Shown here in pieces: positions 2,341 to 19,294 of a stretch of DNA of 32,396 bases (positions within the stretch are counted from its first letter, which is position 1; every line of letters starts with the position of its first letter). The position numbers were made by a program, and so were the translations under genes. The notes below the pieces were generated by a model. The model was not told the DNA's origin. It ran no database searches and worked only from the letters and a program-made list of their open reading frames with translations. The stretch lies in contig CAYMUZ010000168.1 of NCBI GenBank assembly GCA_964393875.1, positions 1 to 32,396 on the forward strand, read 5' to 3'. Origin of the DNA: an uncultured bacterium. GTDB lineage: Bacteria > Omnitrophota > Omnitrophia > Omnitrophales > Aquincolibacteriaceae.

Positions 2341-2679
2341 ATGGCTTATCGTTCCAGAACTAAAGTGGGGGTGGACGTTCTTCGGTTTGAGGGTGATTTA
2401 AGTGTTGGGGAGATGGTCAAGATGAAAAGCCGCCTCACGCGCCTTTTAAACAAAAACCACAAAAATATGCTCTTGGATCTCAAGCAGGCGCGAAATGTCG
2501 AGCTTGCAGGCCTTGGAATTCTTGTGGATCGCCTCCGCAGTGTTCGCGCCCTCAAAGGCGATATTAAACTTTTCAATCTTCGCCCGGAAGTCCGCAATGC
2601 GTTCAACATGGTCGGAGTGGGTTCTTTGATGGAGTCTTTTGCGTCTGAAGAGGAGGCTTTGAGGAGTTTTGCCGCATAA
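2341..2679 (+). CDS. STAS-domain protein (anti-sigma-factor-antagonist-like)
   Basis: ATG follows AGGAGG (2330-2335). The 112-aa size and pattern are SpoIIAA/STAS-like: LRFEGDLSVGE...LLDLKQARNVELAGLGILV...LRPEVRNAFNMVGV. The usual DSSGLG phospho-serine position reads ELAGLG. Confidence 0.8.
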   Translation: MAYRSRTKVGVDVLRFEGDLSVGEMVKMKSRLTRLLNKNHKNMLLDLKQARNVELAGLGILVDRLRSVRALKGDIKLFNLRPEVRNAFNMVGVGSLMESFASEEEALRSFAA

Positions 2680-3571
2680 GCCTGTTTTGGTTCAAGAAAC
2701 CCTTGAACTCCTTAAACTGCGACCCGCAATGACGGTGGTCGATGGAACCCTTGGCGGTGGAGGTCACTCTCTTGAAATCGTTCGACGAATTGCTCCCGGA
2801 GGCCACTTGATCGCCCTTGACAGAGACCCCGATGCATTAGAGCGGGCACAAAAAAAACTTCCAACGGACTGTCGCCTGAGCTTTGCGAATGAAAACTTCA
2901 AAGATCTACCCGGTGTTCTCCGGCAGCTTAATGTTTCATCGGTGGATGCCGTTCTCTTGGACGTAGGGTTCTCGTCCGATCAGGTTGAGGAGGCTTCGAG
3001 AGGGTTTAGTTTTGACAAGGAGGGGCCGCTGGACATGCGTTTGAATCAACAGGAAGGGATTTCAACAGCAGCGGATTTCTTGGCGGAACTTTCGGAGGGC
3101 GAGCTTGAAGCTGTTTTTCGTAACTATGGCGAAGAGAGATTTGCCCGGCGGATTGCTAGAGCCGTTTGCTGGCATCGGGATAAGAATCCGATTGAGACGA
3201 CTTTTCAGCTCGCGGAGGTGGTTGTTTCAGCCATTCCGGGAGCCCGATCGCGTGGTCCCCGTCCTTTTTTTAAAAGACATCCTGCCATGAGAGTTTTTCA
3301 AGCACTGCGGATAGCGGTGAATGATGAGTTGGGAAGTCTTCAGGAAGGCTTGGCGAATATTTGGCCGCATGTCCATTGCGGCGGGCGCCTGGGGGTGATT
3401 TCGTTTCACTCCCTCGAAGACCGTATCGTTAAGCGAAAGTTTCTCGCATGGAAAGCGGAGGGCTCTGCAGAGATCGTGACGCGTAAACCGGTTCAGCCTG
3501 CGGAAGCGGAGCTTCAGGAGAACTCCAGAGCGCGTAGTGCAAAATTCAGAGTGGCGGAAAAAAAATCATGA
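2669..3571 (+). CDS. rsmH: 16S rRNA (cytosine1402-N4)-methyltransferase RsmH
   Basis: HKPVLVQE N-terminus, VDGTLGGGGHS SAM-binding motif, LDVGFSSDQ, and FHSLEDRIVK. The TTG start overlaps the STAS stop by 11 nt. The exact start is uncertain. Confidence 0.92.
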   Translation: MPHKPVLVQETLELLKLRPAMTVVDGTLGGGGHSLEIVRRIAPGGHLIALDRDPDALERAQKKLPTDCRLSFANENFKDLPGVLRQLNVSSVDAVLLDVGFSSDQVEEASRGFSFDKEGPLDMRLNQQEGISTAADFLAELSEGELEAVFRNYGEERFARRIARAVCWHRDKNPIETTFQLAEVVVSAIPGARSRGPRPFFKRHPAMRVFQALRIAVNDELGSLQEGLANIWPHVHCGGRLGVISFHSLEDRIVKRKFLAWKAEGSAEIVTRKPVQPAEAELQENSRARSAKFRVAEKKS

Positions 3572-3997: not shown

Positions 3998-5755
3998 ATG
4001 GCGTCCCTTCTTTCACCCCGCCGCTTCTGGTTTTTGGGGCTTGTTGTTTGCGCATTGTTTATTCTTCTTACCTACCAATTGCTTCAGCTCTGTGTCGTGC
4101 GCCGGCCGACATTACTTCAGATCGCTGAGCGGCAGCAACAGCTTAAAATAGAAATTCCTCCCGTGCGCGGTCAGATTTTTGACCACGACGCTAAAGAGCT
4201 TGCCACCAGTCTCAAAGTTCCATCCGTCTACGCGATCCCGCGTCTTATCGGCAAAAATGAAGTAAAGGATCTCGCCGCCAGGCTCAGCAAAATTTTAAAT
4301 GTGGGCACGCCCTATCTTCTTAAACGCTTAAGCCGCGACAAAGCGTTTGTCTGGATTAAGCGGCGCGTGAGTTTTGAAGACGCTGAACACATTCGGAATA
4401 TGGAACATCCGGCGTTGGGTCTTGTGGAGGAATACAAACGTTTTTACCCTCAGGCGGATCTTGCGTCTCATGTGCTGGGCTATGTGAACGTCGATAGCCA
4501 CGGCCTCGAGGGAGTCGAAAGGGTTTTTGACCGTGAGCTGCGGGGAGAGGCGGGAAGGCGTTATACGAAGCGTGATGCTTTGGGGCGGGAAGTGCGTGCT
4601 TTTGAGATTAAGTCGGTGCCCGCCATCAACGGCAAGCGTATTTATTTGACACTGGATCAATACATGCAGTACGTGACGGAACGGGCTCTTGATCGCGCTT
4701 ATATCAAGTGGCATGCCAAGGGTGCCACGGCGGTCATGATGGAGGCATCGACAGGCCGCATTCTGGCGATTGCCAACCGGCCCACCTATGATCCCAACCG
4801 GCCGGGTGGAGCGGCGGCTGAAGCCCGCCGCAACCGCGCTGTCACGGATATGTATGAGCCGGGTTCCATCTTTAAAATCGTGGCTTTCAGCGGTGTTCTA
4901 GAAGAAAAAAAGGGGGGATTGGAAGACAAGTTTAATTGCGAAAATGGAAATTATCATTACGGCGGCGGGCGAGTGCTTCATGATGCCCATCCTTATGGAA
5001 TTCTCACCCTCCCTGAAATTTTAATCAAATCCAGCAACATTGGCACCGTGAAAGTGGCGGCGCTGCTCGAACACGAGAGTCTTTTTCACTACATTCAAGG
5101 GTTTGGGTTCACCCAACTGACAGGAATTGATCTGCCGGGCGAAGCCGCTGGTTTTATTCGCCCGCCCAGCTTATGGTCCAAAACATCCCCCTATAACATC
5201 CCGATTGGGCATGAGACGCTTGTGACCCTGCTTCAAATGACACGAGCCTTTGCTGTGATTGCCAATGGGGGCAATCTTGTCACTCCGTACGTGCTTTCCA
5301 GGATCGAAGATGAAGCGGGGGTGACCCTGCTTGAGAAAAAACCAGTGATTCGCAGCCGCGTGATCAGTGAAGAAACCGCAAAGACGATGCGCGAATTGAT
5401 GATCCGCGTGGTGACGGAAGGAACCGGAACTAACGCAAGAATCGAGGGAGTGCTTGTCGCCGGAAAAACGGGGACGGCTCAAAAAGTGCTGTCCCATGGG
5501 CGTGGGTATTCGCACGACAGCTTTATGTCTTCATTCATCGGGTTTGCGCCGGCAGATGCGCCGCGGATTGTGATGGCCGTGATGCTGGATGATCCAAAAC
5601 CGAGTTATTACGGCGGGACTGTGGCAGCGCCTGTTTTTAAGGAAGCCGTGGAAGCCGCTCTTTTTGCGCTTGGATACGTTCCACAGAACGCCAAAGTTTT
5701 TAACGGGATTTCAGCTTCGGCAGGCGCTCCAGAAAATCCAGCCACTGCGGAGTGA
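3998..5755 (+). CDS. ftsI: peptidoglycan D,D-transpeptidase FtsI (class B PBP)
   Basis: N-terminal TM helix and a PBP dimerisation region. The transpeptidase motifs are present: SxxK (GSIFK), SxN (KSSN) and KTG (GKTGTA). It sits after ftsL in the dcw cluster. Confidence 0.92.
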   Translation: MASLLSPRRFWFLGLVVCALFILLTYQLLQLCVVRRPTLLQIAERQQQLKIEIPPVRGQIFDHDAKELATSLKVPSVYAIPRLIGKNEVKDLAARLSKILNVGTPYLLKRLSRDKAFVWIKRRVSFEDAEHIRNMEHPALGLVEEYKRFYPQADLASHVLGYVNVDSHGLEGVERVFDRELRGEAGRRYTKRDALGREVRAFEIKSVPAINGKRIYLTLDQYMQYVTERALDRAYIKWHAKGATAVMMEASTGRILAIANRPTYDPNRPGGAAAEARRNRAVTDMYEPGSIFKIVAFSGVLEEKKGGLEDKFNCENGNYHYGGGRVLHDAHPYGILTLPEILIKSSNIGTVKVAALLEHESLFHYIQGFGFTQLTGIDLPGEAAGFIRPPSLWSKTSPYNIPIGHETLVTLLQMTRAFAVIANGGNLVTPYVLSRIEDEAGVTLLEKKPVIRSRVISEETAKTMRELMIRVVTEGTGTNARIEGVLVAGKTGTAQKVLSHGRGYSHDSFMSSFIGFAPADAPRIVMAVMLDDPKPSYYGGTVAAPVFKEAVEAALFALGYVPQNAKVFNGISASAGAPENPATAE

Positions 5756-6671
5756 ATCGCTCTTTCGGATAGACGGCCTCGAGGTCGGTGAATCCTGCGG
5801 GTGATGTGACGTTTACTTCCAATAATTTCCCCCCCATCACATCCAGCCCCGCAACCGACAGTCCGAGCTTTTTCAGCCAGGGGATGATTCGTTTTACGAG
5901 GCGTATTTCTTTTGAAGTTAATGTAGCGGGGTGAGCGGTGCCGCCCAAACTCAAATTGGAGCGGAACTCGCCGGGCGGTGGACGTTTTTCAAACACCCCT
6001 AGAATGCGCCCATTTAAAATCAATACGCGCTTATCGGCACCTCTCGGTGATTTTATGAACTTTTGGACAGCAACGGGAATGCGTCCGCCGCGAGTCAGGT
6101 GCCGGATCTGAGTTTGAGCCGCAGCGCCATGACGTGAGAGCAGAAGAATGCCGCGTCCACCGCGCTCATCCAGTCGTTTGATGACCAGCGTTACGCGTTT
6201 TCTTTTTTGAAACGCCAAGATGGTTTGAGCCGAAGCGCTGACCAGTGTTTGGGGGGTAGGGCTCTGTGTGAGAATCGGTGCCCACTTTTCACTGGCATTT
6301 CTAACACCGGCAGGACTGTTGACCACAGGGACAAAACGGCTCGCACATTCCAACAGATACGTCAGATGAAGGTAGGCTTCGTCAAAAGGGGGCTCCTTTC
6401 TCAGTAAAACTAGATTAAACCGTGGCATTTCCATCGGCACTGGCGCGAGACTGTTAAATCCCTTTTGGGGCCGTGGGGAAAATCGATGAGCCTCAGCGAT
6501 GATTCGGCCGGTGTCAAAAGAAAGTCCCCGCACGTCTGTCCACCAGGTGTGGATGCCACGATGCGCCATTTCGCGCGCCAGCGCAAGGGAGTTATCCCAC
6601 ACAGGATCCAGACGGTGAATCGGATCCATCACAAACAGCACACGCTCTAAGGGTCTAAATATTTTTTTCAC
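5700..6671 (-). CDS. gshB: glutathione synthetase (prokaryotic ATP-grasp type)
   Basis: Colinear with E. coli GshB as I remember it: VMDPI..., LLRKEPPFD, NSPAGVRNASEK, DKRVLILNG, EFRSNLSLGGTAHPATLT, GLDVMGGKLLEVNVTSP. GTG start at 6669-6671. Confidence 0.9.
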   Translation of the reverse strand: MKKIFRPLERVLFVMDPIHRLDPVWDNSLALAREMAHRGIHTWWTDVRGLSFDTGRIIAEAHRFSPRPQKGFNSLAPVPMEMPRFNLVLLRKEPPFDEAYLHLTYLLECASRFVPVVNSPAGVRNASEKWAPILTQSPTPQTLVSASAQTILAFQKRKRVTLVIKRLDERGGRGILLLSRHGAAAQTQIRHLTRGGRIPVAVQKFIKSPRGADKRVLILNGRILGVFEKRPPPGEFRSNLSLGGTAHPATLTSKEIRLVKRIIPWLKKLGLSVAGLDVMGGKLLEVNVTSPAGFTDLEAVYPKERFTPQWLDFLERLPKLKSR

Positions 6672-6698: not shown

Positions 6699-8165
6699 TT
6701 GGTTACTCTAGGTTTCTTTCCTTGTGGAATCTTGAAGCTAAGTTTATTCTACTGTAAAAGAACCATCCGGAGGCTATTTTTGAGCACTTTTATTGGGAGT
6801 ACCAGTCAGACTCTTCTAGAATCGGAGAAACCCCTGCACGATTATTTTCAGCGGCACGCCAAGCCCCGTTCCGGGCTGCTTGTGGGGTTGGAGTTGGAAA
6901 TTTTTGCAGTGAACCGTGAGAGCGGCCGCGCACTGCCTTATTCGGGGGCGGGAGGAATCGAAAAAATTTTGCAGAGGATGGTTTCGCGTTTTCACTATAC
7001 GCCTGTGGAAGAAAACGGCCACATCATCGCGCTTCGTCGTAAGGATGCAATGATCACACTCGAACCGGGTGGACAGGTTGAACTGAGCGCGCCGCCGGTG
7101 GTGACTCTCTTTGAGGTTGAATGGCAAATAGCCAGGTTTTTTTCTGAATTGCATCTTTTGAAAGATGATTTTCAAGAGTTGGAGTGGATCGCTTTTGGAA
7201 TTCAACCGTTTAGTACGAGTGAGGATATCGAGCGAGTTCCCAAAGTGCGCTACGGGATGATGGCCGAACATTTCAAGACGAGGGGAGCGCTTTCTCACGA
7301 CATGATGAAATGTACGGCGACCAATCAAGTGAATTTTGATTATCTGAATGAGGACGACGCCATGGACAGTTTGCGTACGGCACTCGGAATTACGTCGATC
7401 GTTTCAGCCTTGTTTGCAAACTCCTCTTTTTCTGGGGGAGCCCCCAATGGATTTTTGACGCGGCGTCTTGAGATTTGGAACCATACGGACCCTGACCGTA
7501 CCGGAATTGTGCCATTGTTTTTGGAGCCTGGCCGCACCTTTCAAGATTATCTCGAGTACCTGCTTCAGATGCCGATGCTTTTTATTGTTCGGGAGGGAAG
7601 GTGGCTGATGGTGCCAAACCGCTCTTTCCGGCAGTTTATCCGCCATGGTTTTGAACACTGGCGAGCGACGCTGGAAGATTTTGAATTGCATTTAAGTGCG
7701 GCTTTTCCGGAAGTGCGTTTGAAGCAGTATTTGGAAGTTCGCGGAGCGGATTGCCAGCCGCCTAAACTGATTCCGGCCGTGGCCGCATTCTGGAAAGGCA
7801 TTCTCTATCGGCAAGATGCCCGGCGCGAGGCGTGGAAGCTCGTGGCGGATGCTTCGATGGATGAGCGCCGGCGGTTGCATCAAGAAGTACCGCGGCTTGG
7901 GCTTTCAGCAAAACTGGGTGGCTGGTCCAGTTTCGACATCGCCCGGGAGCTGATAGAAGTTTCTTATGACAGTCTTGCGAAGCAGGGGACGGGTAGTGGA
8001 ACCCGCAGTGAATGTCAGTTTTTAACGCGGCTTCGCGAGCAAATCAGGAAGCCCCGGCAGTCGTCTGCGGAACAATTTCTTACGTGGTATCGGTCCGAGA
8101 CTTTTCGCAGCCCGTGCGAAATCGTGGATTACCTGCGCATTGGCGGGGTGCGCGACAGGGCCTGA
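6699..8165 (+). CDS. gshA: glutamate--cysteine ligase, plant/proteobacterial type (GCS2 family)
   Basis: ITLEPGGQVELSAPP, PKVRYGMM, TATNQVNFDY and ALFANSSF match the hallmark blocks of plant-type gamma-glutamylcysteine synthetase. There is no in-frame ATG near the 5' end. Candidate starts are TTG 6699 or TTG 6780. Confidence 0.88.
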   Translation: MVTLGFFPCGILKLSLFYCKRTIRRLFLSTFIGSTSQTLLESEKPLHDYFQRHAKPRSGLLVGLELEIFAVNRESGRALPYSGAGGIEKILQRMVSRFHYTPVEENGHIIALRRKDAMITLEPGGQVELSAPPVVTLFEVEWQIARFFSELHLLKDDFQELEWIAFGIQPFSTSEDIERVPKVRYGMMAEHFKTRGALSHDMMKCTATNQVNFDYLNEDDAMDSLRTALGITSIVSALFANSSFSGGAPNGFLTRRLEIWNHTDPDRTGIVPLFLEPGRTFQDYLEYLLQMPMLFIVREGRWLMVPNRSFRQFIRHGFEHWRATLEDFELHLSAAFPEVRLKQYLEVRGADCQPPKLIPAVAAFWKGILYRQDARREAWKLVADASMDERRRLHQEVPRLGLSAKLGGWSSFDIARELIEVSYDSLAKQGTGSGTRSECQFLTRLREQIRKPRQSSAEQFLTWYRSETFRSPCEIVDYLRIGGVRDRA

Positions 8166-8229: not shown

Positions 8230-8304
8230 CGGGATGTAGCACAGTTTGGCTAGTGCGCTCGGTTCGGGACCGAGAGGTCGCAGGTTCAAATCCTGCCATC
8301 CCGA
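8230..8304 (+). tRNA. tRNA-Pro (anticodon CGG)
   Basis: Perfect cloverleaf of 75 nt. Acceptor stem is CGGGATG/CATCCCG, D stem GCAC/GTGC, anticodon stem CTCGG/CCGAG with loop TTCGGGA (CGG, G37), variable loop AGGTC, T arm GCAGG-TTCAAAT-CCTGC, discriminator A. CCA is not encoded. Confidence 0.95.
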
Positions 8305-8326
8305 CACTCTCTATAAAACAAGGATT
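8287..8326 (+). repeat. 40-bp direct repeat, copy 1 (last 18 nt of tRNA-Pro plus 22 nt downstream)
   Basis: caaatcctgccatcccgacactctctataaaacaaggatt is identical to 8488-8527, at an offset of 201 bp. Confidence 0.95.
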
Positions 8327-9261: not shown

Positions 9262-9564
9262 GTGGGTAAAAAACTTTATGTGGGTAACCTTCCTTATTCC
9301 GCCAACGACCAAACTCTCTCGCAAATGTTTTCGCAGTGCGGGCAAGTTGCATCTGCGCAGGTGATCATGGATCGCGACACTGGCCGCAGCAAGGGTTTTG
9401 GCTTTGTTGAAATGTCATCCGATGCGGAAGCAAGTTCAGCAATCCAACAGCTTAACGGCAAGGATTGCGACGGACGTGCGTTGACAGTGAACGAAGCTCG
9501 GCCTCAGGCTCCTCGCGAAAATCGTGGTGGTGGCGGTGGTTATGGCGGCGGATACGGTCGTTAA
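9262..9564 (+). CDS. RRM-type RNA-binding protein with a glycine-rich tail
   Basis: RNP2 LYVGNL and RNP1 KGFGFVEM are present, with a C-terminal RGGGGGYGGGYGR tail. GTG start follows AAGAGG. Confidence 0.92.
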   Translation: MGKKLYVGNLPYSANDQTLSQMFSQCGQVASAQVIMDRDTGRSKGFGFVEMSSDAEASSAIQQLNGKDCDGRALTVNEARPQAPRENRGGGGGYGGGYGR

Positions 9565-9597: not shown

Positions 9598-9630
9598 AAA
9601 GGGACAGGTCTTTATTGACCTGTCCCTTTT
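9598..9630 (+). terminator. intrinsic terminator after the RRM gene
   Basis: Perfect 10-bp stem GGGACAGGTC (9601-9610) / GACCTGTCCC (9617-9626) with loop TTTATT, followed by TTTT. It is preceded by AAA, so it could act in both directions. Confidence 0.8.
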
Positions 9631-9676
9631 GCGTTGGTGCGCCCGGCAGGGCGCACTCACACGATTGAGGAGTTCA

Positions 9677-10447
9677 GTGATCACACCAAAATTTTTTAAA
9701 AATTTAAACTCGGAGCGCAAGGGCAAGTACGTGCAAATTGGTAAAATTCGCATGTATTATGAAACCTACGGATCGGGTAAGCCGCTCTTGCTTCTTCATG
9801 GCGGTCTTTCGTGCATTGATGGACTTCGCTATCAGATCCCTTTTTTTGCCAAATATTTTAGAGTGATCGTGCCTGAGCGCCCCGGCCATGGCCATACCGC
9901 AGACATTCCGGGTGATTATGACTACGAGACTCTGGCGCGCCAAACCGCCGCTTTTATGGAGGCGGTTAAAATTAAAAAGGCTCGACTGATGGGCTACAGC
10001 GACGGCGCTAATCTCCTTTACTGGCTTGCTGCCAAACGGCCCGATCTAGTCGAACGATTCATTTCGGTGGGAGGAAATTTTCATCACAGCGGATGCGATC
10101 CTGTATTCCAGCGTGAATTAGAAATGAAAAAAGACTTAGAGATTCAAGTGGACCCGCGCTATGCGGCGTACTCTCCGGACGGCGCTGGGCATTACGCCGT
10201 CACTTATGAAAAATGTCGAAAACTTTGGCTGACCGAACCCAAATGGAGAGTCCGCTTGATCCATCAGATCGATGCCCCCGTGTTGATTTTGGCGGGGGAT
10301 CAGGATATGATCAGGCATGAGCACACGCTTGAAATCTATCGTAATCTAAAAAAAGCCCAGCTCGCCATTGTGCCGGGCGCCACGCATGGTTTGTTAAAAG
10401 AAAAGCCTCGGCTTGTGAACGCCCTCATGCTTGAGTTTTTGAAATAA
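9677..10447 (+). CDS. alpha/beta-fold hydrolase
   Basis: Contains [17 protein letters not shown], the nucleophile elbow GYSDG, and a C-terminal GATHGL histidine. I prefer GTG 9677 as the start: it is 4 nt after GAGGAG (9667-9672), whereas the ORF-track start 9629 lies inside the terminator. Confidence 0.85.
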
Positions 10448-10455
10448 GGTTTTCC

Positions 10456-10869
10456 ATGGCATTTGCAGTTCCCCTAAAGAAAGAAGACGACCTCGCTTAC
10501 GCGATGAAGTGCCTGGGCATTCGGGAAGCCGACCTGGAGGAATCTTTTATTCGCTCCGGCGGGCCCGGCGGGCAAAATGTGAACAAAGTTTCAACCTGTG
10601 TCGTTTTAAAGCACAGGCCGACCGGTATTGTGATCAAGTGCCAAAAGGAGCGTTCGCAGGCACTGAACCGTGATGTTGCACGGAGTATTCTTGTGGCGCG
10701 CCTTGAGGCGTTGGTGATCGGCCGGAAAGCCGCAGAGGCGAGCCGCATCGCGAAGGTTAAGCGCCAAAAGCGTAAACGCTCAAAACAAGCTAAAAATAAA
10801 ATGCTCGAGGCTAAGCATGAACACAGCAAGAAAAAACGCGGCAGGCAGCGGGTTATCTCCGATGAATGA
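10456..10869 (+). CDS. arfB: ArfB-like peptidyl-tRNA hydrolase (GGQ / RF-1 domain protein with a basic tail)
   Basis: [17 protein letters not shown] motif and KERSQALNR. The protein is about 137 aa with a Lys/Arg-rich C-terminal tail ([14 protein letters not shown]...KKKRGRQR), as in ArfB/YaeJ. Confidence 0.8.
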
Positions 10870-10893
10870 CACGAAGCCGAGTCTTTTACGAAG

Positions 10894-11286
10894 ATGAAGA
10901 AATTATGGGCACTCCCCCTGCTTATTTTTTTTCTGGTGAGCTTTTCCTCACAGGCATCTGCAGACGATCTCAAATCTTTTTGCTCGCAAACTTGTGGCTT
11001 GTGGCCGAAAATGTGTGCCACGGGGACGTTGTGCCTGAAGCTGTGCAAAACGCCCCAGCGCATCATGAAAGGCTGCTACTCCAACAAAGTCCCCGTCGAT
11101 ACAAAACTGCCGGATATCGCGATGACGAAACAGCAATTCTGCCAGGCCCTGTGTGGTAAACCACCGCTTGTCTGCGCCGTCATGACTTACTGCACGCAGA
11201 GCTGCGGAACGAAGCCGGAAAGTATGAAAGCTTGCATTGAGCAGGGCATTTCCCTCGATACTTACCGGCCAAAGATTATTGGCTAA
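10894..11286 (+). CDS. secreted cysteine-rich tandem-repeat protein (function unknown)
   Basis: Signal peptide MKKLWALPLLIFFLVSFSSQASA. Two 53-residue repeats follow, each with the identical spacing CX3CX6CX5CX3CX9C (C30..C61 and C83..C114). It is the first gene of the sensor/efflux locus. Confidence 0.75.
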   Translation: MKKLWALPLLIFFLVSFSSQASADDLKSFCSQTCGLWPKMCATGTLCLKLCKTPQRIMKGCYSNKVPVDTKLPDIAMTKQQFCQALCGKPPLVCAVMTYCTQSCGTKPESMKACIEQGISLDTYRPKIIG

Positions 11287-11350
11287 TCGAGTTGGGAACT
11301 TTTTTCAGGGAAGAGGACTCTAGGGAGGCATTGCAGGAGTATCGCGGACT

Positions 11351-12025
11351 ATGCGGATTTTGATTATTGAGGATGACCCCAAGACCGCAGGCTATTTAAA
11401 ACAGGGCCTTTCTGAAAATGGCTATGCTGTGGACGCAGCCTTGACGGGCAGTGACGGACTGGCGTTGGCGCATTCCAAAGAGTATGTGCTGATGATCCTG
11501 GATGTCATGATCCCGAAAATGGATGGCTGGAGCATTCTGGCAGAATTGCGTCGCGAAGGGAACAAAACGCCGGTGCTTTTTCTCACGGCCCGTGATTCTG
11601 TCGAAGACCGGGTGCGCGGTCTCAAGCTGGGTGCGGATGATTACCTTGTGAAGCCCTTTTCTTTTTCAGAACTACTTGCTCGCATGGAATCTATTTTGCG
11701 CCGAGGAAACTTCTCGCAGCCGCTGCAGAAAATTCAAGTGGGCGATTTGGAAATTGATTTCACGAATCATCGTGTGACGCGGGCGGCGAAGCGGATCGAA
11801 CTGACCCAAAAGGAATTTCTACTCCTCTATCTTTTGGCCCGCCATCCGGGCAGGGCTCTCTCACGGACGCTGATCGCCGAACAGGTGTGGGATATGAATT
11901 TTGACAGTGATACCAATGTGGTGGATGTTGCGATTCGACGGCTGCGCGCCAAAGTGGATGAACCTTTCCAGCGCACATTGATTCATACCGTCCGTGGCAT
12001 GGGGTATGCGCTTGAAGCACGTTAG
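11351..12025 (+). CDS. OmpR-family response regulator, heavy-metal (CusR/CopR/CzcR) type
   Basis: MRILIIEDD...LDVMIPKMDGW...LTARDSVEDRVRGLKLGADDYLVKPFSFSELLARMESILRRG closely follows CusR. The C-terminal winged helix contains VRGMGY. Confidence 0.93.
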   Translation: MRILIIEDDPKTAGYLKQGLSENGYAVDAALTGSDGLALAHSKEYVLMILDVMIPKMDGWSILAELRREGNKTPVLFLTARDSVEDRVRGLKLGADDYLVKPFSFSELLARMESILRRGNFSQPLQKIQVGDLEIDFTNHRVTRAAKRIELTQKEFLLLYLLARHPGRALSRTLIAEQVWDMNFDSDTNVVDVAIRRLRAKVDEPFQRTLIHTVRGMGYALEAR

Positions 12026-13442
12026 AAATCTGTTGTCGTCCTCCATGGTGTTGCGTCTCGCACTGCTTTATGCCGTCTCTTCCTTTGTGATTCTATCCCT
12101 CTCCTTTGGCTATCTCTACGGAGCGCTCGGCCGCAATCTTAAAGCGGATGAAACCACGTTTTTCAAGGAACAAATGCATTTCTTGAAGGAGATTATTCAC
12201 GATAGACCCGCAGAGTTTGAAGAGGTGAAGGAGAAAATTAACCTGGAAAATTCTGTGACGGGTGTCCCGCGGTATTTTATGCGGGTCCTGGATGATGCCC
12301 GGCAGACTTTGACGGAAACCCGGGGAATGCCGGTATCCGCAAATCGATTTCCGGAATTTTTGTTTTCACACGATGAAAATGAATCTCTGACGGAAGTGAC
12401 GCAAGCAGGGAAAACTTATTTGCTTTTTGGGTCCGGATGCCGCTTTGGGAATACGGGCCCCTGGGCATCCATTCAACTGGCTGCTGATATTTCAACCGAT
12501 AACCGGATTCTTTTGGATTATGGCAGGAAACTTGCGGGAGTCCTGGTGCTGGGGGTGTTTGCTGCGGGTTTTGCAGGGGCGCTGATCAGCCGCCGTGGAC
12601 TTTTGCCATTGAAAAAAATGGCCGAGGCCGCACAAAAAATCCATGCCGAAAATCTTCAGCAGAGTATTTGCGAGAAAGATTGGCCTGAAGAATTACAACA
12701 GTTGGCAGTGGCCTTCGAAGACATGCTCCGCCGGCTCGAAAAATCTTTTACGCAGATTTCACGATTTTCTGCAGACCTGGCGCATGAACTCCGGACGCCC
12801 GTGAATAATCTCATCGGAGAGACCGAAGTCATTTTATCGAAACCTCGCGATGCGGAGGACTATCAAAAGCTTTTGGGCTCGAATCTTGAGGAGTATGAGA
12901 AACTTTCAAAAATCATTGAGAGCATGCTTTTTCTTGCCCGCGCGGAAAACACCGAAATTCCGGTGAAGCGCGAGCCGCTTGATCTCGCGGGGGAAGTCGA
13001 CCGCGTGAAGGACTATTACGGCGCTTTGGCGGAAGAAAAAGGGCTCACGATGAGCCGCAATGGCGAGGGGGTCTTGTTCGCCGATCCCACCCTTTTTCGC
13101 AGGGTTTTGACGAATCTGATTTCAAATGCGATCAAGCACGCAGATCGTGGACAAGTCACTGTTGAAATCATGGAACACCCGGATCACTCCGTGGAGCTTT
13201 CCGTTTCAGACATGGGGCCTGGGATTTCTCCCGCGGATCTTCCGCATATTTTCGACCCATTTTACAGGGTTGATCCCGCAAGATCGTCTGTCGTAGAAGG
13301 GACCGGGCTTGGATTGGCCATTGTTAAATCGATTATGAATCTGCACCGTGGTTCTGTCACTGCCGAGAGCGTGCCAGGACAGGGCACACGCATTCTGCTT
13401 TTTTTCCCACCGCACCTCAAAGATGACAACATTGTAATCTGA
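12006..13442 (+). CDS. heavy-metal sensor histidine kinase (CusS/CzcS type)
   Basis: Two TM helices flank a periplasmic domain of about 130 aa, followed by HAMP. The H-box FSADLAHELRTPVNNL is typical of the heavy-metal sensor kinase family. N, G1 and G2 boxes are present (NAIKH, DMGPGI, GTGLGLAI). The start is ATG 12006 or GTG 11994; both overlap the regulator gene. Confidence 0.9.
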   Translation: MRLKHVRNLLSSSMVLRLALLYAVSSFVILSLSFGYLYGALGRNLKADETTFFKEQMHFLKEIIHDRPAEFEEVKEKINLENSVTGVPRYFMRVLDDARQTLTETRGMPVSANRFPEFLFSHDENESLTEVTQAGKTYLLFGSGCRFGNTGPWASIQLAADISTDNRILLDYGRKLAGVLVLGVFAAGFAGALISRRGLLPLKKMAEAAQKIHAENLQQSICEKDWPEELQQLAVAFEDMLRRLEKSFTQISRFSADLAHELRTPVNNLIGETEVILSKPRDAEDYQKLLGSNLEEYEKLSKIIESMLFLARAENTEIPVKREPLDLAGEVDRVKDYYGALAEEKGLTMSRNGEGVLFADPTLFRRVLTNLISNAIKHADRGQVTVEIMEHPDHSVELSVSDMGPGISPADLPHIFDPFYRVDPARSSVVEGTGLGLAIVKSIMNLHRGSVTAESVPGQGTRILLFFPPHLKDDNIVI

Positions 13443-13493
13443 CCGTCATCTTCCTGCCTTCTGCGGATGTTATGCTACAGACCAGGAGGATCT

Positions 13494-14927
13494 ATGGTTG
13501 GACTGTGCATTCCCACTCGAAAGATTCTGCCGCGTGACTCCGTGCTTGCAGGTGTCTTGCTCGGTGTCTTCTTACTCGGCGGATGCGCCCGGTTTCACGC
13601 AGAAACATTACGCCCCTCACAAACATTGGCTGATTTTGAGGCCCGTACCCTCGAAAGCCCTGACCTCAAACAATTCATCGAGTTTTGTACCCAACGCCCA
13701 ATGACTGCATGGCCGGTCAAAAAGTGGGACCTCGATTCTCTAACTCTGGCGGCCCTTTTTTATCATTCTGATCTCGAGGTAGCGCGAGCGCAATGGCAGG
13801 TTGCCAGGGGTGCGATTGTAACCGCGGGAGAGCGGCCCAACCCCACCGTGGGATTCAACCCCGAATACAAGGCCGGTGGAACGAGCGGGATTTCGCCGTG
13901 GCTTTACGGCCTGACTTTTGACCTGCCCGTGGAAACCATGGGTAAGCGAGGCCGGCGTATCGATCAGGCGCGGCATCATGCCCGAAGCGCAGCCCTTAAC
14001 ATTGCGTCTGCAGCCTGGCAGGTGCGCAGCCGGCTTCACACTGCATGGATTCAACTTAAAACAGCGCGAGCAAATACGGCTTTGTGGAAAGAACAGCTAG
14101 AGCTGCAAGAGGGCTGTCTTCAATCGCTCAACGGTGCTGAAAATGGAGACAGCCTTGCACCGCCAGATCGACTTCAGCTCGAAATCACATGGCGTCAAAC
14201 ACAAATAAGTTTTTTAGAAGCCCGCCGGCAGTCGGAGGATGCGGAAGTTCAGCTGGCGGAATCTCTGGGAATTCCTGTGCATGCCGTACCGCGGGTTGCG
14301 CTAGAACCAAACTCGGGTCGGGCGCAGAAGTTTTCAAAAAAAGAAATACGTCAGCGTGCCCTGACCCAACGTCCCGATTTATTGGGACTGCTCGCCGACT
14401 ACGAGGCCAGTCAGTCTGCGTTGCAGCTTGAGATTGCTCGGCAGTACCCGGACGTTCATCTTGGGCCGGGATATACCTGGGATCAGGGACAGAATAAGTG
14501 GTCTGCGGGTGTGAGCATTACTCTGCCCGTTTTCAATCACAATCAGGGACCCGTGGCAGAAGCTAAAGCCCGGCGGGAAGAGGCACGGTTGCGTTTCACC
14601 GCATTGCAGGAAAAGATTATTTTTGAGGTGGAGCGGGTTTTCAGCGCCTACGAATTTTGCGAGCAAAAGTGGGAGATGGCGCAAAGCCTTTTGGAGGTGC
14701 AGAGGCAGCAGGAGGAGATCCATAAACAATTTTTAATGGAAGGGGAGGCGTCGCGTTTGGCCGCGTTGAATTTTAAACTGGCGCTTAAGACGGCTGAGTT
14801 TGCTGCTGCGGATGCCGGAAGTAAACGGGATCTAGCGTTGGCCGCGCTTGAAGATGCCATGATGGCGCCGCTTGACTCTCAATTATTTCCGCTCTCCGGA
14901 GAAAAACGGGCGAAGGTCTTAAAATGA
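13494..14927 (+). CDS. TolC/CzcC-family outer membrane efflux lipoprotein
   Basis: ATG 13494 is 4 nt after AGGAGG (13484-13489). Lipobox LLGGC. The OEP-type repeats are visible (LAALFYHSDLEVARAQWQVARG ... ERPNPTVGFNPEY; second half LPVFNHNQGPVAEAKARREEA). Confidence 0.88.
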   Translation: MVGLCIPTRKILPRDSVLAGVLLGVFLLGGCARFHAETLRPSQTLADFEARTLESPDLKQFIEFCTQRPMTAWPVKKWDLDSLTLAALFYHSDLEVARAQWQVARGAIVTAGERPNPTVGFNPEYKAGGTSGISPWLYGLTFDLPVETMGKRGRRIDQARHHARSAALNIASAAWQVRSRLHTAWIQLKTARANTALWKEQLELQEGCLQSLNGAENGDSLAPPDRLQLEITWRQTQISFLEARRQSEDAEVQLAESLGIPVHAVPRVALEPNSGRAQKFSKKEIRQRALTQRPDLLGLLADYEASQSALQLEIARQYPDVHLGPGYTWDQGQNKWSAGVSITLPVFNHNQGPVAEAKARREEARLRFTALQEKIIFEVERVFSAYEFCEQKWEMAQSLLEVQRQQEEIHKQFLMEGEASRLAALNFKLALKTAEFAAADAGSKRDLALAALEDAMMAPLDSQLFPLSGEKRAKVLK

Positions 14928-15406
14928 GGCAACGTGGATATGACACTTTGGCGAGGGAGCCAGTTTTAAAAATAGTTGCGGCGTCCTTCCTTTTTTTGAT
15001 TTGTATTTCCGGCAGTGTCTTTGCGGAGCCGGAAGAGGGACGCAAAACCCATTGGGTGACTCAGGAGGGGGAAACTCTTTTATGCTTCTCTCAAGCCGAG
15101 ATCGTTGACAATGCAATCAAGACGGAGATCGCCCCGGCCTCGACGGTTGGGTTGCTCGCACCTTCAACGGCGATTGTTTGGCGGAAAGGCCACCCGTGGG
15201 TGTATGTCCAAAAAAAGGAGAATTGTTTTCTTCGCACAGAAATATCTCTCGTTTCTGACGGACCTTCCACAAAACCCATTTGTCCCCAGCGCGATTGTCA
15301 GCGGGTGCTCGCGAACCCCGTCTTAAAAAATAAAATGGTAGTGCAGGGCGCCGCACAGCTTTTATCGGAGGAGTTCATCAATGAAATCGGGGAGGATGCG
15401 GAATGA
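14924..15406 (+). CDS. short periplasmic protein in the membrane-fusion (adaptor) position; only MFP N- and C-terminal segments recognisable
   Basis: ATGA overlaps at both ends (14924-14927 and 15403-15406). Signal peptide IVAASFLFLICISGSVFA. FSQAEIVDNAIKTEIAP resembles the MFP N-terminal strand. APSTAIVWRKGHPWVYVQKKENCFLRTEISL...MVVQGAAQLLSEE resembles the MFP C-terminal domain. At 160 aa there is no room for lipoyl or alpha-hairpin domains. Confidence 0.65.
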   Translation: MRQRGYDTLAREPVLKIVAASFLFLICISGSVFAEPEEGRKTHWVTQEGETLLCFSQAEIVDNAIKTEIAPASTVGLLAPSTAIVWRKGHPWVYVQKKENCFLRTEISLVSDGPSTKPICPQRDCQRVLANPVLKNKMVVQGAAQLLSEEFINEIGEDAE

Positions 15407-18400
15407 AGTCTGAAGCCGGCGGTTTCTTGAATGGACTGGTTGAGCTCTCACTTCGTTTTCGAGTGATTGTGCTGGTTTTGGCCTTGGGTCTGATGGGTTA
15501 CGGATTTTACAGTTTATTGAATGCCAAGTACGATGTTTTTCCTGAGTTTGCAGATCCGCAGATCACGATTCAAACTCAAGCGGTTGGGCTGTCGCCCGAA
15601 CAGGTTGAGACGCTGGTCACACTGCCCATTGAAAGCTCGATGAATGGAGCGGCGGGCCTAGAGACCCTGCGATCCAACTCGATTCAGGGCCTTTCAGTCA
15701 TCACCGCGATATTTCACTCCGACACCGATATTTACCGGGCGCGGCAGATCATTACCGAAAGGCTTGCCTCGATTGCTTCAAAGCTTCCGCAGGGAGTGCA
15801 GGCTCCGGTGATGGTGCCTCTGACCTCCGCGACGGGCGATCTTGTGAAAATAGGGCTGATATCCCATAAACATTCGCTGATGGAGCTTCGGACTCTGGCC
15901 GATTGGACGCTCAAGCCGCGCTTCTTAGCGGTACCAGGGGTGGCGAAGGTCTCGATTTTTGGGGGAGAGGTGAAACAACTCCAGATTCAGATCGATCCCG
16001 ACCGTTTGCGGCAGTACCAGCTGTCGGTTGACGATGTTTTTGCAGCGGCGAGGCGGGCAACGGGGGTACGAGGTGCCGGTTTTGTGGATACCGGAAACCA
16101 GCGTATTGTACTGCAGGCAGACGGACAGACACTGACGCCTGAAGCTTTGGGCGAGAGCATTCTTGTGGTGGGTGCCAACTCCGGAGTGACGTTCGTCGCA
16201 ACGCTGGCCGATGTGGCAAAAATCGTTGCGGCTCCCGATCTGCCCATCAGCGCGGCCACGGTCATGGGAGAGCCGGGTGTGACCTTGAATATCTGGGGGC
16301 AGTATGGCGCTAATACGTTGGAAGTGACGCGGTTGATCGAGCAGGCCGTGGTCGAATTAAAACCCATGCTTGATCAGGAAGGCGTCGAACTTTACCCTGT
16401 TCTTTTTCGCGCTGCTAGTTTTATTGAGATTGCCACAAGCAATCTTAAAACATCCTTGTGGATGGGCGGTTTGCTTGTGGGGGTGATTTTATTCTTGTTT
16501 TTGTGGGATGTTCGAACCGCGTCGATTTCTGTAACGGCGATTCCCTTGTCGTTGGTTGCCGCGGTGATCGTGATGCAGAAATTGGGTTTTAGTCTCAATA
16601 CGATGACTCTCGGAGGTTTGGCGATTGCCATTGGGGAAGTGGTGGATGATGCCGTGATCGACGTGGAAAATATTTTGCGCCGCATTCGCGAGAATGCCCA
16701 TGCGGCACGGCCCAAACCCGCGTTTCAGGTGGTGCTTGAAGCCTCTCTGGAAGTTCGCAGTGCCGTGGTTTATGCCACCTTTGCGGTGATTCTAGTGTTT
16801 ATTCCGGTGTTGACGATGTCCGGATTAGCCGGAAAATTTTTTGCGCCTCTCGGCATCGCTTACATTCTTGCCATTCTTTCCTCCCTGGGGGTGGCCGTGA
16901 CCTTGACGCCGGCGCTCTGTCTTATTTTTTTCAAAAAAGCGGATCTGGAAAATGAAGAGCCTCGTTTTTTACAAGGATTGAAAAGGCAGTACCGGCAATG
17001 GCTTCAGCAGGTAGAAAAATATCCACGAATAGTCATGATGGCACTTTTTCTCGTCAGTTTTGCCGGTCTTGCGGCGGGGCCTTTTTTGAAAACGGAGTTT
17101 TTGCCTGAACTTCAGGAAGAGCATTTTTTAATTCATATGGCGGCGGTGCCCGGCACTTCGATTGAAGAATCACTGCGCATCGGTAACCGGGTCACGCAAG
17201 AGTTGCTCAAACTGCCGTGGATGCGCTTTGTGGCACAGCAGGTGGGCAGGGCGGAGGCCGACGATACATTTGGTCCGCATGCGAGTGAGTTTCAAGTGGA
17301 TCTCCGGCCCCTGAGTAAAAAAGAAGCAGAGAGGGCTTTGCCCGCGATTCGCCAGGTGCTTTCAAAGTTTGTGGGGGTGCGCTTTGCGGTTAATACCTTT
17401 TTGGCGGAACGCATTGAAGAAACGCTTTCTGGATACACGGCCCCGGTGGCAATTCATCTCTACGGAGACTCGCTGGATCTTTTGGATCAAAAAATTACAG
17501 AGGTCGCGCGGGTGCTCGAAAAAGTGTCTGGGGTGACCGATCTTCAGGCGCAGTCTCCGCCGGGAGCGCCTGAACTTTCCGTCCGCTTGCGGCCACTGGA
17601 TTTACAGAAGTGGGGTTTTGCGGCGGTGGATGTGCTCGACTCGATAAAAACAGCCTACCAGGGCAATGTGGTTGGGCAAATTTACGAGGGGAGCCGAGTG
17701 TTTGATGTTTCGGTTATTCTAGAGCCGCAATTGCGGAAATCGATTCCCGATGTGGGTGGTTTACTGCTGAAAAGTCCGGCAGGGTTGTATGTGCGCTTGA
17801 ATCAGCTTGCGGATATTCAGGAAACCGCCGGTCGTTACGGCATTCTTCATGAGCATGCACGGCGTGTTCAGACGCTGACCTGCAATGTTCATGGGCGTGA
17901 TGTCGATTCTTTTGTGCGTGAAGCCAGGCGGAGTTTGGAGAAGGGGGTGACATTGCCGGCGGGCATGTACCTTGAATTTGCGGGAACGGCCGAGGCGCAG
18001 GATCGTTCACGCCACGATTTGATGGTGCACTCGCTCGCGGCCGGGATGGGCATTCTTTTGCTTCTCGGGATTGTCCTGAATCATCCGCGCAACGTGATGC
18101 TCGTTTTACTTAATTTGCCATTTGCGCTCACAGGCGGCGTGTGGGCGTTGTTGGCGACGAGAACGGCTTTGTCGCTTGGCGCGCTCGTTGGATTTGTTAC
18201 CCTTTTTGGAATTACGCTGCGCAATTCCATTATGATGATTTCGCACTACACCCACTTGATTCAGGAAGAACAGAAGCTTTGGAATGTGGAGACAGCCATT
18301 CAAGGTGCGTGCGAACGGCTGGGGCCGATTTTGATGACGGCGCTTGTGGCAGGGATCGGACTTTTACCTTTGGCGCTTGGGAGTGGCACGGCCGGGCGTG

Positions 18401-18525
18401 AGATCGAAGGGCCTATGGCCATTGTCATTCTCGGCGGACTTGTCACATCCACCCTGCTCAATCTTCTTGCGCTTCCCGCGCTTGCCCTGCGCTACGGCTC
18501 CTTCCAGCGAGAGGAGTCTGTCTAA
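15403..18525 (+). CDS. CzcA/CusA-family RND efflux permease
   Basis: 1040 aa with a 12-TM RND layout. The N-terminal block FPEFADPQITIQTQAVGLSPEQVETLVTLPIE...LRSNSIQGLSVITAIFHSDTDIYRARQIITERL follows the CzcA-family pattern. The TM4 motif is AIGEVVDDAVIDVEN. Confidence 0.95.
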   Translation: MKSEAGGFLNGLVELSLRFRVIVLVLALGLMGYGFYSLLNAKYDVFPEFADPQITIQTQAVGLSPEQVETLVTLPIESSMNGAAGLETLRSNSIQGLSVITAIFHSDTDIYRARQIITERLASIASKLPQGVQAPVMVPLTSATGDLVKIGLISHKHSLMELRTLADWTLKPRFLAVPGVAKVSIFGGEVKQLQIQIDPDRLRQYQLSVDDVFAAARRATGVRGAGFVDTGNQRIVLQADGQTLTPEALGESILVVGANSGVTFVATLADVAKIVAAPDLPISAATVMGEPGVTLNIWGQYGANTLEVTRLIEQAVVELKPMLDQEGVELYPVLFRAASFIEIATSNLKTSLWMGGLLVGVILFLFLWDVRTASISVTAIPLSLVAAVIVMQKLGFSLNTMTLGGLAIAIGEVVDDAVIDVENILRRIRENAHAARPKPAFQVVLEASLEVRSAVVYATFAVILVFIPVLTMSGLAGKFFAPLGIAYILAILSSLGVAVTLTPALCLIFFKKADLENEEPRFLQGLKRQYRQWLQQVEKYPRIVMMALFLVSFAGLAAGPFLKTEFLPELQEEHFLIHMAAVPGTSIEESLRIGNRVTQELLKLPWMRFVAQQVGRAEADDTFGPHASEFQVDLRPLSKKEAERALPAIRQVLSKFVGVRFAVNTFLAERIEETLSGYTAPVAIHLYGDSLDLLDQKITEVARVLEKVSGVTDLQAQSPPGAPELSVRLRPLDLQKWGFAAVDVLDSIKTAYQGNVVGQIYEGSRVFDVSVILEPQLRKSIPDVGGLLLKSPAGLYVRLNQLADIQETAGRYGILHEHARRVQTLTCNVHGRDVDSFVREARRSLEKGVTLPAGMYLEFAGTAEAQDRSRHDLMVHSLAAGMGILLLLGIVLNHPRNVMLVLLNLPFALTGGVWALLATRTALSLGALVGFVTLFGITLRNSIMMISHYTHLIQEEQKLWNVETAIQGACERLGPILMTALVAGIGLLPLALGSGTAGREIEGPMAIVILGGLVTSTLLNLLALPALALRYGSFQREESV

Positions 18526-18616
18526 GAATCCTGAATTTGGTACTTTTCCCTCTATGTCTCAGGCCCCCCCCTTGCATTTTGTGGACATGTCAGGTACCTT
18601 TCAACTAGAGACAGAA

Positions 18617-18734
18617 GCTTTTGAAAAGGGCAAACCACGGCTCGAGGGCTCTTCGCAAATAGCGAAGCCGTAAGGGTGGGACGCAAAACTATGGGGCCTT
18701 TTCTTTCGAAAAGGTCAGCCGGCTGCCAAAACGC
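18617..18734 (+). promoter_or_regulatory. candidate c-di-GMP-I (GEMM-I) riboswitch aptamer
   Basis: Three conserved blocks are present: AAAAGGGCAAACC (18624-18636), GGGACGCAAAAC (18678-18689) and CAGCCGGCUGCC (18716-18727). Closing helix GCUUUUG (18617-18623) pairs with CAAAA(C)GC (18727-18734). Hairpin GGCCUUUUC-UUUC-GAAAAGGUC spans 18695-18716. ACGGCU (18637-18642) pairs with AGCCGU (18666-18671). It lies in the 5' leader of a PilZ gene. Judged from memory of the Vc2 aptamer, not from a covariance-model search. Confidence 0.6.
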
Positions 18735-18850
18735 AATCTCATTGCTGGGGTGGCCGTCTTTGCTTGTGGCGGCGGAAAGGGCAGGAAAGAGTGGCACATT
18801 TGGTTCAGATGAATCGGTTTAGCACCTGGGTATGCGCGGTCGGAAATGGA

Positions 18851-19294
18851 ATGCTCGCGCTTTTGGGCTTGCGTGGAGAGGATCGGCGGAAGGGGGTTCG
18901 GGGCGATGAAGATCGCAGAGTTGCACCGAGAGTGCCTACGCGCAATCTTCTCAAGATTGTGTCGGTGAATGGAAAACCGGTGACCCAGCTTTTTAACCTT
19001 GTCAATATTTCCGAGACTGGTTTTCGTTTTATCAATTTTCAACAGTTCCACGAGGGGACTGTGGTTCAGGGAGTTGTGAATGTGCGCGAGTTTGATCAGC
19101 AGGTGCCTGTGGATGCGCGCATCGTTTGGTCGGAACCGCTCACGCTGAAAGTGGTCTGGGTGGACAAACATGACCGCAAGAGATCTCACACCCGGCATGC
19201 TGGGGCGGCCATTATGGCCATGGCCGATTCTGACCGCTACATTTTACGCCACTTTGTCCACCACAAAATGCAGATGCAGTGGGCCCAAAGCTAA
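18851..19294 (+). CDS. PilZ-domain protein (c-di-GMP receptor type)
   Basis: RRVAPR (RxxxR) is followed 24 residues later by NISETG (D/NxSxxG), the bipartite PilZ c-di-GMP-binding signature. The start is uncertain: in-frame ATG 18851, ATG 18809 or TTG 18764. Confidence 0.75.
   Translation: MLALLGLRGEDRRKGVRGDEDRRVAPRVPTRNLLKIVSVNGKPVTQLFNLVNISETGFRFINFQQFHEGTVVQGVVNVREFDQQVPVDARIVWSEPLTLKVVWVDKHDRKRSHTRHAGAAIMAMADSDRYILRHFVHHKMQMQWAQS

Follow-up and report, generated by a model that had tools for sequence, protein, structure and literature searches.

What does a small exported protein with twelve cysteines do, when its gene lies on the same strand directly upstream of genes for metal sensing and efflux? 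The question is raised by a 32,396-nucleotide stretch of DNA from an uncultured member of the Omnitrophota (family Aquincolibacteriaceae; contig CAYMUZ010000168.1 of assembly GCA_964393875.1), which is referred to in full as the window, and in which a cysteine-rich protein of 130 amino acids (aa) is followed by a CusRS-type two-component system and by genes of a resistance-nodulation-division (RND) efflux pump. The initial annotation placed this gene at the head of a metal-sensor/efflux locus and proposed for its product the role of a periplasmic metal chaperone, metal buffer or co-sensor for the kinase. Comparison with related loci and structure prediction give a different answer. The protein is probably a Sec-exported, disulfide-locked periplasmic scaffold or binding protein with a twin-CX3C motif, and not a metal chaperone or co-sensor, and its gene belongs to a conserved block of which the metal genes are not part. 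The features of the gene are as follows.

10894..11286, + strand: coding sequence, with its stop codon, of the exported cysteine-rich protein of 130 aa, from the open reading frame (ORF) list and its translation
10894..10962, + strand: residues 1-23, predicted to form a Sec signal peptide that is cleaved after A-S-A, from inspection of the sequence
10963..11121, + strand: repeat 1, residues 24-76, C30-x3-C34-x6-C41-x5-C47-x3-C51-x9-C61, then an extended NKVPVDTxxP tail
11122..11283, + strand: repeat 2, residues 77-130, C83-x3-C87-x6-C94-x5-C100-x3-C104-x9-C114, then a GxxxD(T/S)xRPxIxG tail

The architecture first described for the protein, a signal peptide followed by two 53-residue repeats of identical cysteine spacing, is fully borne out. 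Cysteines occupy positions 30, 34, 41, 47, 51 and 61 and again positions 83, 87, 94, 100, 104 and 114, giving the spacing 3-6-5-3-9 (CX3CX6CX5CX3CX9C) in both repeats with a gapless offset of 53 residues; each repeat opens with FC, again as originally reported, and closes with a V/L-D-T segment (VPVDT and ISLDT). The two repeats share 18 of 50 residues, and alignment of their profiles across homologues with hhalign gives a probability of 98% and an E-value of 6e-14, so that the internal tandem duplication is real and not a product of chance. The N-terminus looks on inspection like a Sec signal peptide, with a KK pair, a hydrophobic core and then the site A-S-A|DD; small residues at -3/-1 followed by a conserved E-D recur in all nine homologues, and neither a lipobox cysteine nor a conserved twin-arginine motif was found in this region by the same means. 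In the AlphaFold2 (AF2) model, the predicted local distance difference test (pLDDT) score stays below 50 across residues 4-19 of the putative signal peptide. The mature window protein would comprise about 107 aa (11.7 kDa, pI 8.9) with 12 Cys, 0 His and 5 Met, while the mature homologues compared have a pI of 8.7-8.9 and contain 0-1 His and 1-6 Met each. CC, CXC and CXXC motifs are absent from the 130-aa sequence.

The family to which the protein belongs is small and strictly conserved in its cysteines. A word-indexed search of 5.8 billion clusters returned two relatives, an exhaustive phmmer search of 1.84 billion representatives returned two true relatives (P0003 and P0005) together with one artefact (P0004), and a profile built from five members brought the total to nine clusters plus the window protein, whereas a profile of the repeat unit returned P0005 alone and did not enlarge the family. 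The exact window protein is absent from the searched cluster collection. Members are 129-138 aa long, bar one fragment truncated at a contig end, and all are unnamed, devoid of Pfam domains and derived from metagenome assemblies; one sample bears the label groundwater, and others that of an aquifer study. Across the nine full-length members, which are 48-61% identical, all 12 Cys are invariant, as are F29, Q32, T33, L36, P38, K39, P54, N64, D69 and P73 in the first part of the chain and Q81, F82, T98, Y99, Q102, T106, D122, P126 and G130 in the second, but no His or Met position is. In comparisons of the window gene with three homologous genes, the proportion of differing synonymous sites (pS) is 0.72-0.85, which amounts to saturation, against 0.21-0.34 for non-synonymous sites (pN), and the ratio of the two substitution rates (dN/dS) is about 0.13 where calculable; with pN so far below pS, the ORF is a genuine gene, kept by purifying selection. 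A scan of GTDB genomes with the protein gave no relatives. The closest genomes by their ArfB relatives (at most 57% identity) are metagenome-assembled genomes of Omnitrophota, Planctomycetia and Verrucomicrobiota, and no ORF with the cysteine pattern was found in 80 genomes with ArfB relatives (Omnitrophota, Verrucomicrobiota, Planctomycetia, Patescibacteria and others), all loci of which were scanned by regular expression and in 13 of which the ORFs following arfB were listed. The family is thus restricted to a narrow clade of uncultivated bacteria, probably akin to the Omnitrophota or to the wider Planctomycetes-Verrucomicrobia-Chlamydiae (PVC) group, that has no close reference genome.

The view of the initial annotation that the protein matches no known family has also held. 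At default thresholds (E<=0.01), Pfam and NCBIfam gave no match to the protein; relaxing the Pfam threshold to E<=10 with five members returned noise, the top match being TACI-CRD2 at E 0.26-4, and a search of PDB sequences returned phycocyanin alone at E 0.28, likewise noise. Foldseek comparisons of full-length and single-repeat AF2 models with the PDB gave no match, and those with the viral BFVD library nothing better than E 3. The full-length AF2 prediction reached a pLDDT of 79 and a predicted template modelling (pTM) score of 0.63 in its best model, and the prediction for a single repeat a pLDDT of 77-83 in all five models. In both, each repeat is folded into four short helices of 4-13 residues, which in the full-length model lie at residues 20-32, 39-42, 44-51 and 55-63 in repeat 1 and at 79-86, 92-95, 97-104 and 108-116 in repeat 2, and this model adds short strands at 76-78 and 127-129, one per repeat tail. 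The predicted helices cover or flank both CX3C motifs of each repeat, the third cysteine falling within a short helix of the connecting loop and the sixth within the fourth helix.

Several features taken together point to structural disulfides. The number of cysteines per domain is even and invariant, they lie in predicted short helices, Sec export would deliver them to an oxidising periplasm (the presence of outer-membrane factor (OMF) and RND genes indicates a diderm envelope), CC/CXC clusters and the CXXC redox motif are lacking, and there is no conserved His or Met, unlike in typical periplasmic Cu/Ag proteins. Periplasmic copper and silver proteins and chaperones typically use Met, His and Trp ligands. 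The likely pairing is suggested by the arrangement CX3C-X12-CX3C found in each repeat (C30-x3-C34-x12-C47-x3-C51 and C83-x3-C87-x12-C100-x3-C104). In small Tim proteins, a twin-CX3C motif forms two parallel disulfides linking two antiparallel helices (PMC2064014), and the alpha-hairpinin motif is defined as CX3C-X4-20-CX3C (PMC11591084). By analogy with both, the predicted pairs are C30-C51, C34-C47 and C41-C61. A literature search for bacterial periplasmic twin-CX3C proteins returned mitochondrial papers only.

The favoured reading of the protein as a disulfide-locked scaffold would run as follows. Tandem duplication of a mini-domain of about 50 residues and four short helices would have given rise to a basic exported protein, in which the six invariant cysteines of each domain form three structural disulfides. 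The twin-CX3C motif (C1-x3-C2 ... C4-x3-C5) would staple an antiparallel helix-loop-helix through C30-C51 and C34-C47, and C41-C61 would tie on the fourth helix, with equivalent pairs in repeat 2. The product would be a compact, rigid and protease-resistant periplasmic scaffold that works by binding a partner, its binding surface being provided by the invariant polar residues and the extended D-T/S-x-x-P tails rather than by metal. Export, the helical fold, the pairing of disulfides and a binding role not involving metal are all inferred here.

The genomic surroundings bear directly on whether the metal genes belong to the protein's function. The locus in the window is composed of the following features.

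9262-9564: RRM protein gene, upstream of the hydrolase gene
9629..10447, + strand: alpha/beta-hydrolase, first gene of the block formed by hydrolase, arfB-like and cysteine-rich genes (Pfam Abhydrolase_1 at 1e-21)
10456..10869, + strand: ArfB-like small RF-1-domain protein, 137 aa (Pfam RF-1 at 1e-26)
11287-18763: variable cargo slot between the cysteine-rich gene and the PilZ-domain gene
11351..18525, + strand: lineage-specific cargo consisting of a CusR/CopR-type regulator, a heavy-metal sensor kinase, an OMF, a 160-aa ORF and a CusA/CzcA-like RND protein
13467-14927: OMF gene within this cargo
14924-15406, + strand: 160-aa ORF with an N-terminal hydrophobic segment, lying between the OMF and RND genes and overlapping both by 4 nucleotides (nt)
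15403-18525: CusA/CzcA-like RND gene within this cargo
18764..19294, + strand: PilZ-domain gene, at which the conserved backbone resumes (Pfam PilZ at 3e-7), followed by a SpoU methylase and then a PIF1 helicase

The ArfB-like protein scores under the cut-off of the NCBIfam ArfB model, and its gene ends 24 nt before the cysteine-rich gene. A further ORF of 189 aa lies antisense at 10497-11066 (- strand), overlapping both the arfB-like and the cysteine-rich gene; it is not considered a gene, its BLAST matches being due to shadowing of the conserved coding sequence on the other strand. Downstream, 64 nt separate the cysteine-rich gene from the regulator gene, and the spacer contains no terminator-like hairpin, although scans for terminators and promoters around the cysteine-rich gene were uninformative on the whole. 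The regulator matches TIGR01387 and the sensor kinase TIGR01386. Of the same-strand context described at the outset, the regulator of CusR/CopR type, the heavy-metal kinase, the OMF and the RND protein stood up to analysis, but the adaptor was not confirmed: the ORF in its place is only 160 aa long and matches no membrane-fusion-protein family and nothing in Pfam, NCBIfam or the PDB. Nowhere in the window is there a gene for a membrane-fusion protein of the usual size (about 350-400 aa), so that the pump has either no recognisable adaptor or a novel minimal one.

Ten lineages could be compared, the window included, and in nine of them the downstream neighbour of the cysteine-rich gene is readable, the locus in L097 ending at that gene. 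In the gene orders of the other nine, given below, Cys denotes the cysteine-rich gene and brackets enclose cargo.

L001: RRM - hydrolase - RF-1 - Cys - [469-aa unknown, three small ORFs, Cu/Zn superoxide dismutase (Cu/Zn-SOD), DUF748, SNase] - PilZ - PilZ - CxxCxxCC - SpoU - PIF1; slot at 10397-15514
L088: mraZ ... gshB, gshA - hydrolase - RF-1 - SDR - Cys - [Rrf2, ABC transporter, CLC channel, DUF2582] - PilZ - PilZ - CxxCxxCC - SpoU - PIF1; slot at 10394-16805
L093: hydrolase - RF-1 - flavodoxin - 171 aa - Cys - [466 aa, VTT, FGE-sulfatase]; slot from 6473 onward
L092: hydrolase - RF-1 - Cys - 164 aa - PilZ - CxxCxxCC - SpoU - PIF1
L096: RF-1 - Cys - (63-aa ORF, opposite strand) - PilZ - PilZ - CxxCxxCC - SpoU
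L005: RF-1 - Cys - PilZ-like
P0009 contig: hydrolase - RF-1 - Cys - PilZ
L097: hydrolase - RF-1 - Cys (contig end)
L006: 146-aa unknown - Cys (truncated)

The cysteine-rich gene is the last gene of a conserved block of alpha/beta-hydrolase, arfB-like and cysteine-rich genes on the chromosomal backbone. The ArfB-like gene lies immediately 5' of it on the same strand in seven of the ten lineages, with one or two genes between them in two more and a different arrangement in one. The spacer from RF-1 to the cysteine-rich gene measures 0-24 nt in the window, L001, L005, L092, L096 and L097; in the P0009 contig the two gene calls run into each other. The ArfB-like gene is probably the operon partner of the cysteine-rich gene. 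In L096, a GC-rich hairpin with a 10-bp stem and a following T-run (967-994) lies 120 nt 3' of the stop codon, which fits the cysteine-rich gene as the last gene of an operon in that lineage. The backbone from RRM through hydrolase, RF-1 and the cysteine-rich gene to PilZ, SpoU and PIF1 is common to the window and L001, and the same order starting from the hydrolase is found in L088 and L092. At the protein level, the window hydrolase is 70-72% identical to its syntenic counterparts in L001 and L007, with further syntenic copies in L088, L092, L093 and L097, and the window PilZ protein is 44-52% identical to those encoded 3' of the cysteine-rich gene in L001 and L005.

What lies between the cysteine-rich gene and PilZ, by contrast, varies. 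Four different cargos occupy this interval, those of L001, L088 and L093 being unrelated to that of the window, and it is empty or nearly so in the four lineages (L005, L092, L096 and the P0009 contig) in which PilZ follows directly or after one short ORF. A two-component system with an RND pump stands beside the cysteine-rich gene in one of the nine informative lineages, namely the window itself. The CusRS-OMF-RND genes are therefore one of several alternative cargos in a variable slot, and the claim that the cysteine-rich gene heads a metal-sensor/efflux locus gives way to one in which its conserved neighbour is the ArfB-like gene upstream. Judged by linkage to sensor or efflux genes in other genomes, the test put forward with the initial annotation, the original claim is refuted. 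No flanking repeats, tRNA, integrase or GC shift were found around the CusRS-RND block in the window.

Some observations weigh against the reading of a disulfide-locked scaffold on a conserved block. The lack of any Foldseek match leaves the predicted fold without independent support, the four remaining full-length AF2 models reached a pLDDT of just 51-66, and both alignments behind the predictions were shallow (five sequences for the full-length protein and nine for the single repeat). Gene order retained within so narrow a clade argues only weakly for a functional link to arfB, and in L088 and L093 other genes have been inserted between arfB and the cysteine-rich gene. In addition, three of the four slot cargos are loosely related to metals or redox chemistry (the CusRS-RND genes, the Cu/Zn-SOD cluster, and Rrf2 with an ABC transporter), which could hint at a connection, though it is taken here as coincidence.

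The explanation that the cysteines themselves carry out chemistry takes several forms. The initial annotation suggested that the protein works alongside the neighbouring CusRS-type system and RND pump, handling metal through thiolates as a periplasmic chaperone, buffer or co-sensor, and its twelve cysteines, its position on the same strand shortly 5' of the regulator without a terminator-like hairpin between them, and the occurrence of Cu/Zn-SOD in another slot cargo are in keeping with this. CX3C motifs do bind copper in some proteins, for example Sco. However, sensor and efflux genes are not found beside the cysteine-rich gene in any of the other eight informative lineages, the gene is spaced as the last gene of an arfB operon, and the profiles of CusF, CopC, Csp and metallothionein give no match at E<=10, in agreement with the original judgement that the protein is none of CusF, CopC or metallothionein. 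It is small and exported like CusF, CopC, CopK and PcoE/SilE, and in one genome stands beside a CusRS-type system and an RND pump, but these are beta-barrel or disordered proteins with Met, His and Trp ligands, whereas the cysteine-rich protein is predicted to be helical, contains 12 Cys without conserved His or Met, and has neither a profile match nor conserved linkage to metal genes. Many cysteines are also shared with metallothioneins and Csp proteins. The former are built from CC/CXC clusters with little secondary structure, clusters that the cysteine-rich protein lacks. The latter, of which Csp1 is exported and helical, form a long four-helix bundle that is lined with reduced cysteines and folded before export, in contrast to predicted helices of 4-13 residues. 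Because each domain places six cysteines in predicted helices and the chain starts with a putative Sec signal, a pattern typical of structural disulfides, metal binding appears unlikely, and a metal chaperone, buffer or co-sensor is very unlikely to be the right description, since the adjacency that was its sole support is not conserved. A broader variant would see in the CX3CX6CX5CX3CX9C unit a bacterial periplasmic fold not described before, in which a third disulfide is added to a twin-CX3C helical hairpin and at least some of the cysteines are functional, for instance as ligands of Cu(I) or a different thiophilic metal or in a holdase resembling small Tims; the position at the slot would then be no accident, the slot repeatedly capturing metal- or redox-related genes. 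This variant is improbable. A redox-active thiol/disulfide protein, serving in the periplasm as a sink for oxidants or as a redox relay, would suit the high cysteine content and the presence of gshA, gshB and glutathione peroxidase genes within the window, but the sequence has no active-site CXXC and shows no sign of a thioredoxin fold, the glutathione genes lie 3-15 kb away and outside the operon of the cysteine-rich gene, and the rigidly kept cysteine spacing is that of a framework, which makes such a function highly unlikely.

Other alternatives assign the protein to a known type. It could be a secreted mini-protein for defence or offence, that is, a double-headed inhibitor of proteases or lysozyme, or an antimicrobial or toxin-like peptide, built on cysteine-stabilised helical hairpins such as those of plant alpha-hairpinins and the scorpion kappa-toxins (kappa-KTx) of the cysteine-stabilised alpha/alpha (CS-alpha/alpha) class. 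Like these, the protein appears to be secreted, small, basic (pI about 8.8) and disulfide-rich, with tandem "heads"; its CX3C-X12-CX3C arrangement in each repeat fits the alpha-hairpinin 4C motif, with the CX3C segments predicted to be helical or to flank helices. Some alpha-hairpinins are antimicrobial or inhibit trypsin (PMC11591084). The likeness nonetheless stays at the level of the motif, with no sequence or Foldseek similarity: the protein is bacterial and 130 aa long, with two domains in one mature chain of 107 aa, its repeats contain a third cysteine pair (one cysteine in the hairpin loop and one after the motif) and a fourth helix, and it differs in origin from alpha-hairpinins, which are short peptides released from plant precursors and have a core motif uninterrupted by further cysteines. 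Genes for immunity, export or processing are not found nearby, the gene is a single-copy member of the backbone beside housekeeping genes, and selection on it is strong and uniformly purifying rather than diversifying, as is common in offence and defence peptides. An inhibitor or toxin is for these reasons unlikely. A periplasmic holdase analogous to the small Tims would place the twin-CX3C motif in the compartment that is evolutionarily equivalent, and homologous, to their intermembrane space (PMC2064014). Against this stand the predicted helices, which are much shorter than the long "tentacle" helices of small Tims, the extra cysteine pair in each domain, the absence of a match to the Tim10/DDP Pfam model at E<=10, the putative export by Sec rather than import by Mia40, and the tandem monomer where a hexamer-forming hairpin would be expected; no evidence of a hexamer or of chaperone activity was found for the protein, and the analogy is extremely unlikely to hold. 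A degenerate bacterial PAN/Apple-type domain was suggested by the phmmer match (E 4e-13) to P0004, a eukaryote-like protein of 1005 aa with apple/PAN-type repeats, which shares with repeat 2 the motif CQxLCGxxPxxCxxxTY..TKPE....C. That E-value, however, is a sum over five near-identical copies that score about 27-30 bits each in BLASTP, none of five members matched a PAN model at E<=10, and the repeat of 53 aa is predicted to be all-helical, whereas PAN/Apple domains span about 80-90 aa around a beta-sheet core. P0004 was consequently rejected as a relative, the similarity being a probable chance match of motifs, and descent from a PAN domain is barely credible. Among PVC bacteria, the envelope proteins OmcA/OmcB of chlamydiae and the YTV proteins of planctomycetes are likewise exported and rich in cysteine, but the protein has no lipobox, a different cysteine pattern and no similarity to them in sequence or profile. 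By profile, fold or origin, the protein thus fits none of the alpha-hairpinins, small Tims, CusF/CopC/SilE, Csp, metallothioneins and PAN, and no sequence relatives were found beyond the bacterial family of ten clusters. The protein resembles cysteine-stabilised helical hairpin mini-proteins most, yet is a member of no described family.

Elsewhere in the window, some features are of interest in their own right. A divergent pair of glutathione synthetase (5700-6671, - strand) and plant-type (GCS2) glutamate-cysteine ligase genes (6699-8165, + strand) lies upstream of the hydrolase gene, followed by a tRNA-Pro(CGG) at 8230-8305 (+ strand), and a glutathione peroxidase gene is found downstream at 26400-26960 (+ strand). 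From the presence of gshA and gshB it follows that the organism makes glutathione; the gshB/gshA pair is kept in L088 and L093. A gene for a STAS-domain protein of the anti-sigma-factor-antagonist type (2341-2679, + strand) is inserted between mraZ (1838-2320) and rsmH/mraW (2669-3571), an unusual arrangement at the head of the dcw cluster, where this gene pair is normally invariant, and one that L088 shares.

The cysteine-rich protein is an orphan, narrowly distributed family of a familiar general kind, the secreted disulfide-rich repeat protein. For its interpretation, the presence of CusRS and RND genes next door in just one genome does not count as evidence for a function in metal handling; it was the comparison of about ten related loci that exposed a variable cargo slot beside a conserved backbone gene. 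As the family occurs in no more than a handful of uncultivated bacteria represented solely by metagenomes, and nothing connects it with a process, its wider biological pay-off is limited unless a partner or an activity emerges. If the scaffold reading is true, it would add one more orphan disulfide-rich mini-domain to those among bacterial periplasmic proteins, a possible Pfam "domain of unknown function" with a clean and rigid cysteine framework, possibly a new small fold, and maybe a useful stable scaffold.

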